Notes under the pieces: model-generated
What the model saw: the letters and a program-made list of their open reading frames with translations, nothing else
Database searches by the model: none
Told to the model about the DNA's origin: nothing
Part shown: one piece after another, positions 33,877-35,192 of the stretch
How positions within the stretch are numbered: position 1 is the first letter of the stretch
Layout of the letters: each line of letters starts with the position of its first letter
Made by a program: the position numbers and the translations under genes
DNA from: Escherichia coli
GTDB taxonomy: Bacteria > Pseudomonadota > Gammaproteobacteria > Enterobacterales > Enterobacteriaceae
Assembly (NCBI RefSeq): GCF_030013595.1
Contig: NZ_CP122768.1
Strand: one strand, 5' to 3'
DNA length: 64,000 nucleotides

Positions 33877-33921
33877 CTGATGAATCCCCTAATGATTTTT
33901 ATCAAAATCATTAAGTTAAGG

Positions 33922-33991
33922 TAGATACACATCTTGTCATATGATCAAATGGTTTCGCCAAAAATCAATAATCAGACAACAAAATGTGCGA
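33922..33991 (-). ncRNA. IS10 RNA-OUT antisense RNA (position inferred from known IS10 architecture)
   Basis: Known IS10 layout places pOUT transcript antisense to the transposase start region; not independently verifiable here. Confidence 0.4.
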
Positions 33992-35192
33992 ACTCGATAT
34001 TTTACACGACTCTCTTTACCAATTCTGCCCCGAATTACACTTAAAACGACTCAACAGCTTAACGTTGGCTTGCCACGCCTTACTTGACTGTAAAACTCTC
34101 ACTCTTACCGAACTTGGCCGTAACCTGCCAACCAAAGCGAGAACAAAACATAACATCAAACGAATCGACCGATTGTTAGGTAATCGTCACCTCCACAAAG
34201 AGCGACTCGCTGTATACCGTTGGCATGCTAGCTTTATCTGTTCGGGCAATACGATGCCCATTGTACTTGTTGACTGGTCTGATATCCGTGAGCAAAAACG
34301 GCTTATGGTATTGCGAGCTTCAGTCGCACTACACGGTCGTTCTGTTACTCTTTATGAGAAAGCGTTCCCGCTTTCAGAGCAATGTTCAAAGAAAGCTCAT
34401 GACCAATTTCTAGCCGACCTTGCGAGCATTCTACCGAGTAACACCACACCGCTCATTGTCAGTGATGCTGGCTTTAAAGTGCCATGGTATAAATCCGTTG
34501 AGAAGCTGGGTTGGTACTGGTTAAGTCGAGTAAGAGGAAAAGTACAATATGCAGACCTAGGAGCGGAAAACTGGAAACCTATCAGCAACTTACATGATAT
34601 GTCATCTAGTCACTCAAAGACTTTAGGCTATAAGAGGCTGACTAAAAGCAATCCAATCTCATGCCAAATTCTATTGTATAAATCTCGCTCTAAAGGCCGA
34701 AAAAATCAGCGCTCGACACGGACTCATTGTCACCACCCGTCACCTAAAATCTACTCAGCGTCGGCAAAGGAGCCATGGATTCTAGCAACTAACTTACCTG
34801 TTGAAATTCGAACACCCAAACAACTTGTTAATATCTATTCGAAGCGAATGCAGATTGAAGAAACCTTCCGAGACTTGAAAAGTCCTGCCTACGGACTAGG
34901 CCTACGCCATAGCCGAACGAGCAGCTCAGAGCGTTTTGATATCATGCTGCTAATCGCCCTGATGCTTCAACTAACATGTTGGCTTGCGGGCGTTCATGCT
35001 CAGAAACAAGGTTGGGACAAGCACTTCCAGGCTAACACAGTCAGAAATCGAAACGTACTCTCAACAGTTCGCTTAGGCATGGAAGTTTTGCGGCATTCTG
35101 GCTACACAATAACAAGGGAAGACTCACTCGTGGCTGCAACCCTGCTTACTCAAAATCTATTCACACATGGTTACGTTTTGGGGAAATTATGA
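33984..35192 (+). CDS. IS10 transposase (402 aa)
   Basis: MCELDILHDSLYQFCPELHLKRLNSLTLACHALLDCKTLTLTELGRNLPTKARTKHNIKRIDRLLGNRHL... matches IS10/Tn10 transposase. Confidence 0.96.
   Translation: MCELDILHDSLYQFCPELHLKRLNSLTLACHALLDCKTLTLTELGRNLPTKARTKHNIKRIDRLLGNRHLHKERLAVYRWHASFICSGNTMPIVLVDWSDIREQKRLMVLRASVALHGRSVTLYEKAFPLSEQCSKKAHDQFLADLASILPSNTTPLIVSDAGFKVPWYKSVEKLGWYWLSRVRGKVQYADLGAENWKPISNLHDMSSSHSKTLGYKRLTKSNPISCQILLYKSRSKGRKNQRSTRTHCHHPSPKIYSASAKEPWILATNLPVEIRTPKQLVNIYSKRMQIEETFRDLKSPAYGLGLRHSRTSSSERFDIMLLIALMLQLTCWLAGVHAQKQGWDKHFQANTVRNRNVLSTVRLGMEVLRHSGYTITREDSLVAATLLTQNLFTHGYVLGKL

Follow-up and report, generated by a model that had tools for sequence, protein, structure and literature searches.

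The element at positions 33877..35205 (+) of the window, the 64,000-nt stretch of Escherichia coli DNA analysed here (contig NZ_CP122768.1), is an ordinary complete IS10 of the IS10-Left sequence type, 1329 bp in length, inserted in the gene for DNA polymerase II (polB) in the same orientation as that gene. It is an element of an already known kind, and its NCBI label is the ISVsa5 family. Insertion into polB by an intact IS10, a standard antisense control module and insulation of that module from polB read-through are taken together as one reading, to which a probability of about 85% is given. According to this reading, a Left-type IS10 would have transposed into polB at codons 514-516, duplicating a 9-bp target and inactivating DNA polymerase II in a natural E. 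coli lineage.

The borders of the element and the two parts of the interrupted gene are placed as follows.

32329..33924 (+): polB 5' fragment ORF, consisting of codons 1-516 (polB part to 33876), 15 IS10-encoded codons and a TAG (ORF and profile NF004420, positions 1-516 of 783)
33868..33876 (no strand): target-site duplication, left copy, CGCCTGGCG (repeat search; single at the empty site of ST2747)
33877..33899 (+): outside-end terminal inverted repeat (end-sequence match and repeat pair with 35183-35205)
35183..35205 (-): inside-end terminal inverted repeat, with the second Dam GATC at 35196-35199 (end match and repeat pair)
35206..35214 (no strand): target-site duplication, right copy, CGCCTGGCG (repeat search)
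35206..36018 (+): polB 3' fragment, profile positions 514-783 (profile search)

The outside-end terminal sequence of IS10, CTGATGAATCCCCTAATGATTTT, starts at 33877 and occurs only once in the window (0 occurrences expected by chance), and the inside-end sequence, of which the end is matched exactly, finishes at 35205. The segments 33877-33899 and 35183-35205 form a paired inverted repeat, which fits the imperfect terminal repeats of about 23 bp (CTGA...) that are a trait of IS10. All 1329 bases of the element are identical (100%) to positions 36132-37460 of plasmid R100 (NC_002134.1), that is, to the Tn10 copy on the gltS/jemA side. By the published map of Tn10, this copy is IS10-Left. The identity includes the control region with RNA-OUT, the two Dam sites and the ORF of the transposase in the IS10-Left of Tn10. 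The polB copy differs from it in standing alone, not as an arm of Tn10, and in occupying a new site (polB codons 514-516) that was unseen in the collections searched. Searches with the outside end, the inside end and Rfam detected no second IS10 copy in the window.

The 9-bp direct repeat CGCCTGGCG is perfect on both sides of IS10, with a repeat spacing (1338) equal to 1329 + 9. The corresponding empty site is found in polB of E. coli ST2747, where one CGCCTGGCG is present at exactly the same place. CGCCTGGCG agrees with four of the six specified bases of NGCTNAGCN, the IS10 target consensus, of the symmetrical GC..GC type. The profile matches of the two polB halves overlap by three residues (514-516), corresponding to the duplicated target, and removal of IS10 and one repeat in silico yields an intact 783-aa polB protein identical to that of ST2747. 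The perfect duplication and the rejoining of the two halves to an intact protein thus point to a simple, clean transposition event.

The junction between polB and IS10 is covered in none of 5426 complete E. coli genomes, its exact sequence has no match in one genome per species (species representatives), and the 531-aa polB'-IS10 fusion product corresponds to no recorded gene product in an exact look-up. These absences are what might be seen if the junction were an assembly artefact, with an IS10 copy misplaced in polB. However, an assembly error would not give rise to a duplicated target, and the 9 bp duplicated here are single at this position in intact polB; moreover, the polB halves are precisely complementary. 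The artefact is therefore barely conceivable and was rejected.

Among the 5400 E. coli records that match the 5' part of polB, all except 9 show less than 99% identity to it; the sequences of E. coli ST2747 and of two pig isolates are 99.9% identical. The whole polB shows 9 differences from that of ST2747 in 2352 nt. Judged from these identities, the polB sequence appears to come from a natural isolate that belongs to an uncommon lineage of E. coli, not from K-12. The neighbourhood (araC / araBAD - polB - rapA - rluA) is that of an ordinary E. coli. Further upstream, a leucine operon leader (14801-14950), SgrS (19709-19935) and a TPP riboswitch (22701-22800) are detected by Rfam at the expected places, with nothing unusual about them. 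The insertion leaves polymerase motif A (DYKSLYPS) on the 5' fragment of polB and motif C (YGDTDS) on the 3' fragment, and the case would represent a natural knockout of DNA polymerase II by IS10 in one E. coli lineage.

An earlier note on this DNA had proposed an IS10 antisense control region adjoining the truncated polB, and the outside end and control region of IS10 indeed run from 33877 on. The elements assigned to this region, together with the transposase ORF, are the following.

33906..33918 (+): IHF-consensus-like AATCATTAAGTTA, IS positions 30-42 (one mismatch to WATCAANNNNTTR)
33922..33991 (-): RNA-OUT antisense RNA, IS positions 115 down to 46 (Rfam RF00240, full model)
33943..33946 (no strand): Dam site GATC, IS positions 67-70 (sequence)
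33957..33991 (+): the 5' 35 nt of RNA-IN, complementary to RNA-OUT (35-nt overlap from PMC5006887; start at IS position 81)
33984..35192 (+): transposase ORF of 402 aa that retains the DDE triad D97/D161/E292 (ORF and profile search)
33999..34004 (-; read 34004->33999): TAAAAT, possible -10 hexamer for pOUT, located 8 nt before the start of RNA-OUT (read from the sequence; putative)

The regulatory anatomy of this region is textbook knowledge. The interval 33877..33995 would hold the standard module, comprising the terminal repeat and the IHF-like site, the weak promoter pIN together with a Dam site, the start of RNA-IN, and RNA-OUT on the opposite strand. The segment 33906..33918 is presumably the functional IHF site of the IS10 outside end, and the start of RNA-IN is taken to be IS position 81 (33957). 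RNA-OUT is detected at 33922..33991 (-) with 97.3 bits (gathering score 41; E = 2.3e-20); the match to RF00240 is full-length and every consensus pair is formed, with one stem pair being G-U instead of G-C. The RNA folds as a long hairpin (-21.3 kcal/mol, z -4.0). The duplex of 35 bp between RNA-IN and RNA-OUT is fully complementary (-55.6 kcal/mol) and includes the transposase AUG at 33984 (IS position 108), and RNA-IN alone is essentially unstructured by folding (-3.4 kcal/mol). RNA-OUT has been described as 69 nt in length and ending at IS nt 47, with its first 35 nt pairing with the translation-initiation region (PMC5006887).

Two further claims of the earlier note concern the layout of the region. 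The tetranucleotide GATC, said to lie at both ends of the element, occurs exactly twice in it, at IS positions 67 (33943-33946) and 1320 (35196-35199), in agreement with both coordinates of the note, and the first of these sites overlaps the -10 region of pIN (PMC5006887). The placement of pIN, pOUT and RNA-OUT all within the first ~115 bp is correct for RNA-OUT but not for the DNA of pOUT, which should lie at about 33992-34027, outside 33877..33995, because a promoter must be upstream of the RNA-OUT start at 33991. A consensus promoter/terminator scan of 33600-35500 recovered neither pIN nor pOUT and no promoter-like site there; the positions of the two promoters therefore rest on the literature.

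The same control region is present in 1803 of the 5426 complete E. coli genomes. A best match of at least 99% identity is seen in 749 records and one of 95-99% in 1399, and the sampled rows of the latter band stand at 95.4%. This is the Right-type value, and both IS10 haplotypes are very common in E. coli.

The Right-type element used for comparison is the copy on the tetD side of Tn10 (R100 43951-45279), which is 98.9% identical to the polB copy and has the same length, ends, gene layout, RNA-OUT fold and Dam sites. This copy is IS10-Right, and its RNA-IN sequence is the one on which experimental studies of the element have been done. It differs from the polB copy at 15 positions, six of which are in the first 107 bp (IS positions 24, 25, 27, 47, 83 and 107). 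Positions 24, 25 and 27 fall in the stretch that separates the terminal repeat from the IHF-like site. At position 47, the polB copy has TAG where IS10-Right has TGG, and this TAG is the one that ends the polB frame. Position 83 (33959) corresponds to RNA-IN +3 and is part of the RNA-OUT loop, at which pairing nucleates. Position 107 (33983), the base before the AUG, changes a G-C pair of the RNA-OUT stem in IS10-Right to G-U in the polB copy, and the RNA-OUT hairpin of the polB copy (-21.3 kcal/mol) compares with one of -23.9 kcal/mol in IS10-Right. The predicted nucleation energies are -3.2 and -5.8 kcal/mol for heterologous Left/Right RNAs, versus -9.2 and -9.8 kcal/mol for the matched pairs. 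With the nucleation base at IS position 83 differing, these modelled energies suggest that the Left and Right types may be partly orthogonal classes of antisense specificity.

The transposase ORF scores 402 bits against NCBIfam NF033591 (IS4-family transposase; cut-off 152). [quoted passage not shown] On these grounds, the polB copy could be regarded as a transpositionally dead passenger, inserted in trans by the transposase of an IS10-Right located elsewhere in the same cell and carrying a control region with nothing to control. This is unlikely, however, considering that the copy has an intact ORF, DDE triad and pair of ends, that IS10 transposase acts preferentially in cis, and that natural isolates carry the identical IS10-Left haplotype at many different sites, on chromosomes as well as on plasmids. 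Furthermore, a de novo IS10L insertion has arisen in a laboratory strain with two mapped IS10L copies, although this strain may also carry IS10-Right (PMC11481808). A Left-type IS10, often called inactive, thus occurs here as a clean, recent-looking single insertion.

The earlier note had also suggested that the polB frame reads through the region opposite RNA-OUT, and that polB transcription and the antisense control of IS10 might interfere with each other. The orientation is as described: polB and the transposase ORF are both on the (+) strand and RNA-OUT is on the (-) strand, so that polB transcription would run against RNA-OUT. The frame itself, however, ends at the TAG at 33922-33924, 48 nt into IS10 and at the RNA-OUT 3' end. 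Therefore, only transcription of polB, and not its translation, could cross the overlap of RNA-IN and RNA-OUT (33957-33991). Two features bear on the transcripts that would do so.

32258..32273 (+): LexA-box-like CTGTATAAAACCACAG upstream of polB (CTG-N10-CAG pattern)
33928..33988 (+): fold-back hairpin of transcripts entering from polB, which would bury the transposase AUG (folding prediction)

polB is a weakly expressed SOS gene with a weak promoter, and 32258..32273 is presumably the polB/dinA SOS box. This site abuts the araD stop codon in the araD-polB spacer (32255-32328). Between it and the polB GTG, the spacer also contains a strong hairpin followed by a U6 run (32284-32314, -18.9 kcal/mol, z -4.6), with a TATACT hexamer in the loop. 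A promoter/terminator consensus scan of 32100-32450 returned nothing and missed the hairpin and U-run that folding shows.

Since polB and the transposase gene are co-oriented, transcripts from the LexA-controlled polB promoter could enter IS10. With the two hairpin arms in one molecule, such transcripts would most likely fold over the start codon and be translated poorly, and transcription across the outside end would, if anything, lower the activity of that end. In the predicted fold, CACAU/UUGU (33928-33937) pairs with ACAA/AUGUG (33979-33988), and the AUG at 33984-86 is paired with the CAU at 33930-32. The folding energy is -12.3 kcal/mol for the 71 nt of the Left-type hairpin. The modelled probability that the initiation region (IS positions 100-113) is unpaired decreases from 0.46 in RNA-IN to 0.32 in the read-through RNA, which is a modest drop.

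This predicted behaviour agrees with the known general properties of IS10. A transcript that reads into the element includes the complement of the RNA-OUT hairpin, sequesters the transposase start and is translated poorly, and transcription across an IS10 end lowers the activity of that end. Protection of IS10/Tn10 from external promoters at two levels was reportedly described by Davis, Simons and Kleckner in 1985. The literature already gives a general answer to the question of read-through, which is that IS10 is insulated from transcription coming from outside. IS10 shares this logic with IS200, in which a left-end terminator and a 5'UTR hairpin neutralise outside transcription and RNA structure hides the transposase start (PMC4513863). 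In contrast to IS200, IS10 is without an end terminator and relies on a fold-back hairpin that forms only in transcripts from upstream of pIN.

It may be argued, on the other hand, that transcripts from the polB promoter change the regulation of this IS10 meaningfully, by supplying extra translatable transposase mRNA, by soaking up RNA-OUT or by collision with polymerase from pOUT, in which case the activity of the element would follow that of polB in the SOS response. The co-orientation of the two genes and the LexA box upstream of polB are compatible with this, and so are some properties of the Left-type sequence. Its fold-back stem has an A.C mismatch adjoining the AUG and is approximately 5 kcal/mol weaker than that of IS10-Right (-17.9 versus -23.0 kcal/mol in a 121-nt frame). 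In addition, the polB stop codon (33922-24) precedes the 5' arm of the stem by 4 nt, and by this geometry a terminating polB ribosome could transiently open the stem by covering that arm. Titration of RNA-OUT by sense RNA also has precedent, having been used experimentally in the IS10 system with dedicated titrator constructs (PMC4513863).

Nevertheless, such an effect is improbable. Apart from the two-level protection mentioned above, a strong hairpin and U-run stand in the araD-polB spacer, and nothing in the sequence sets the polB insertion apart from thousands of others. RNA-OUT is abundant, stable and long-lived and polB is weakly expressed, so titration of RNA-OUT by polB is unlikely. 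An effect in the opposite direction, of RNA-OUT or pOUT on polB, would be without a functional target, because polB is already split between motifs A and C. Moreover, single-copy IS10 has been reported not to be under antisense control in any case (PMC5006887), and one copy is visible in the window. Therefore, polB transcripts would probably reach IS10 with little net effect, and it appears that the interference idea of the earlier note has the geometry right and the consequence probably wrong.

A more specific form of the idea combines LexA-controlled polB read-through with the Left-type TAG (IS position 47) and the A.C mismatch, such that DNA damage might unmask the transposase start and raise transposition. 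This SOS-responsive IS10 is still less probable than a general effect of polB read-through. If true, it would add a modest case in which the insertion context places a transposon under the control of host stress.

At the other border of the element, a 283-aa ORF (35167-36018) has its initial ATG within the inside end of IS10 and continues in frame into the polB 3' fragment. The IS10 promoters pIII and OUTIIp have been described as active near the inside end (cited in PMC11481808), and in the present insertion they would point toward the polB 3' fragment and rapA (36182-39088).
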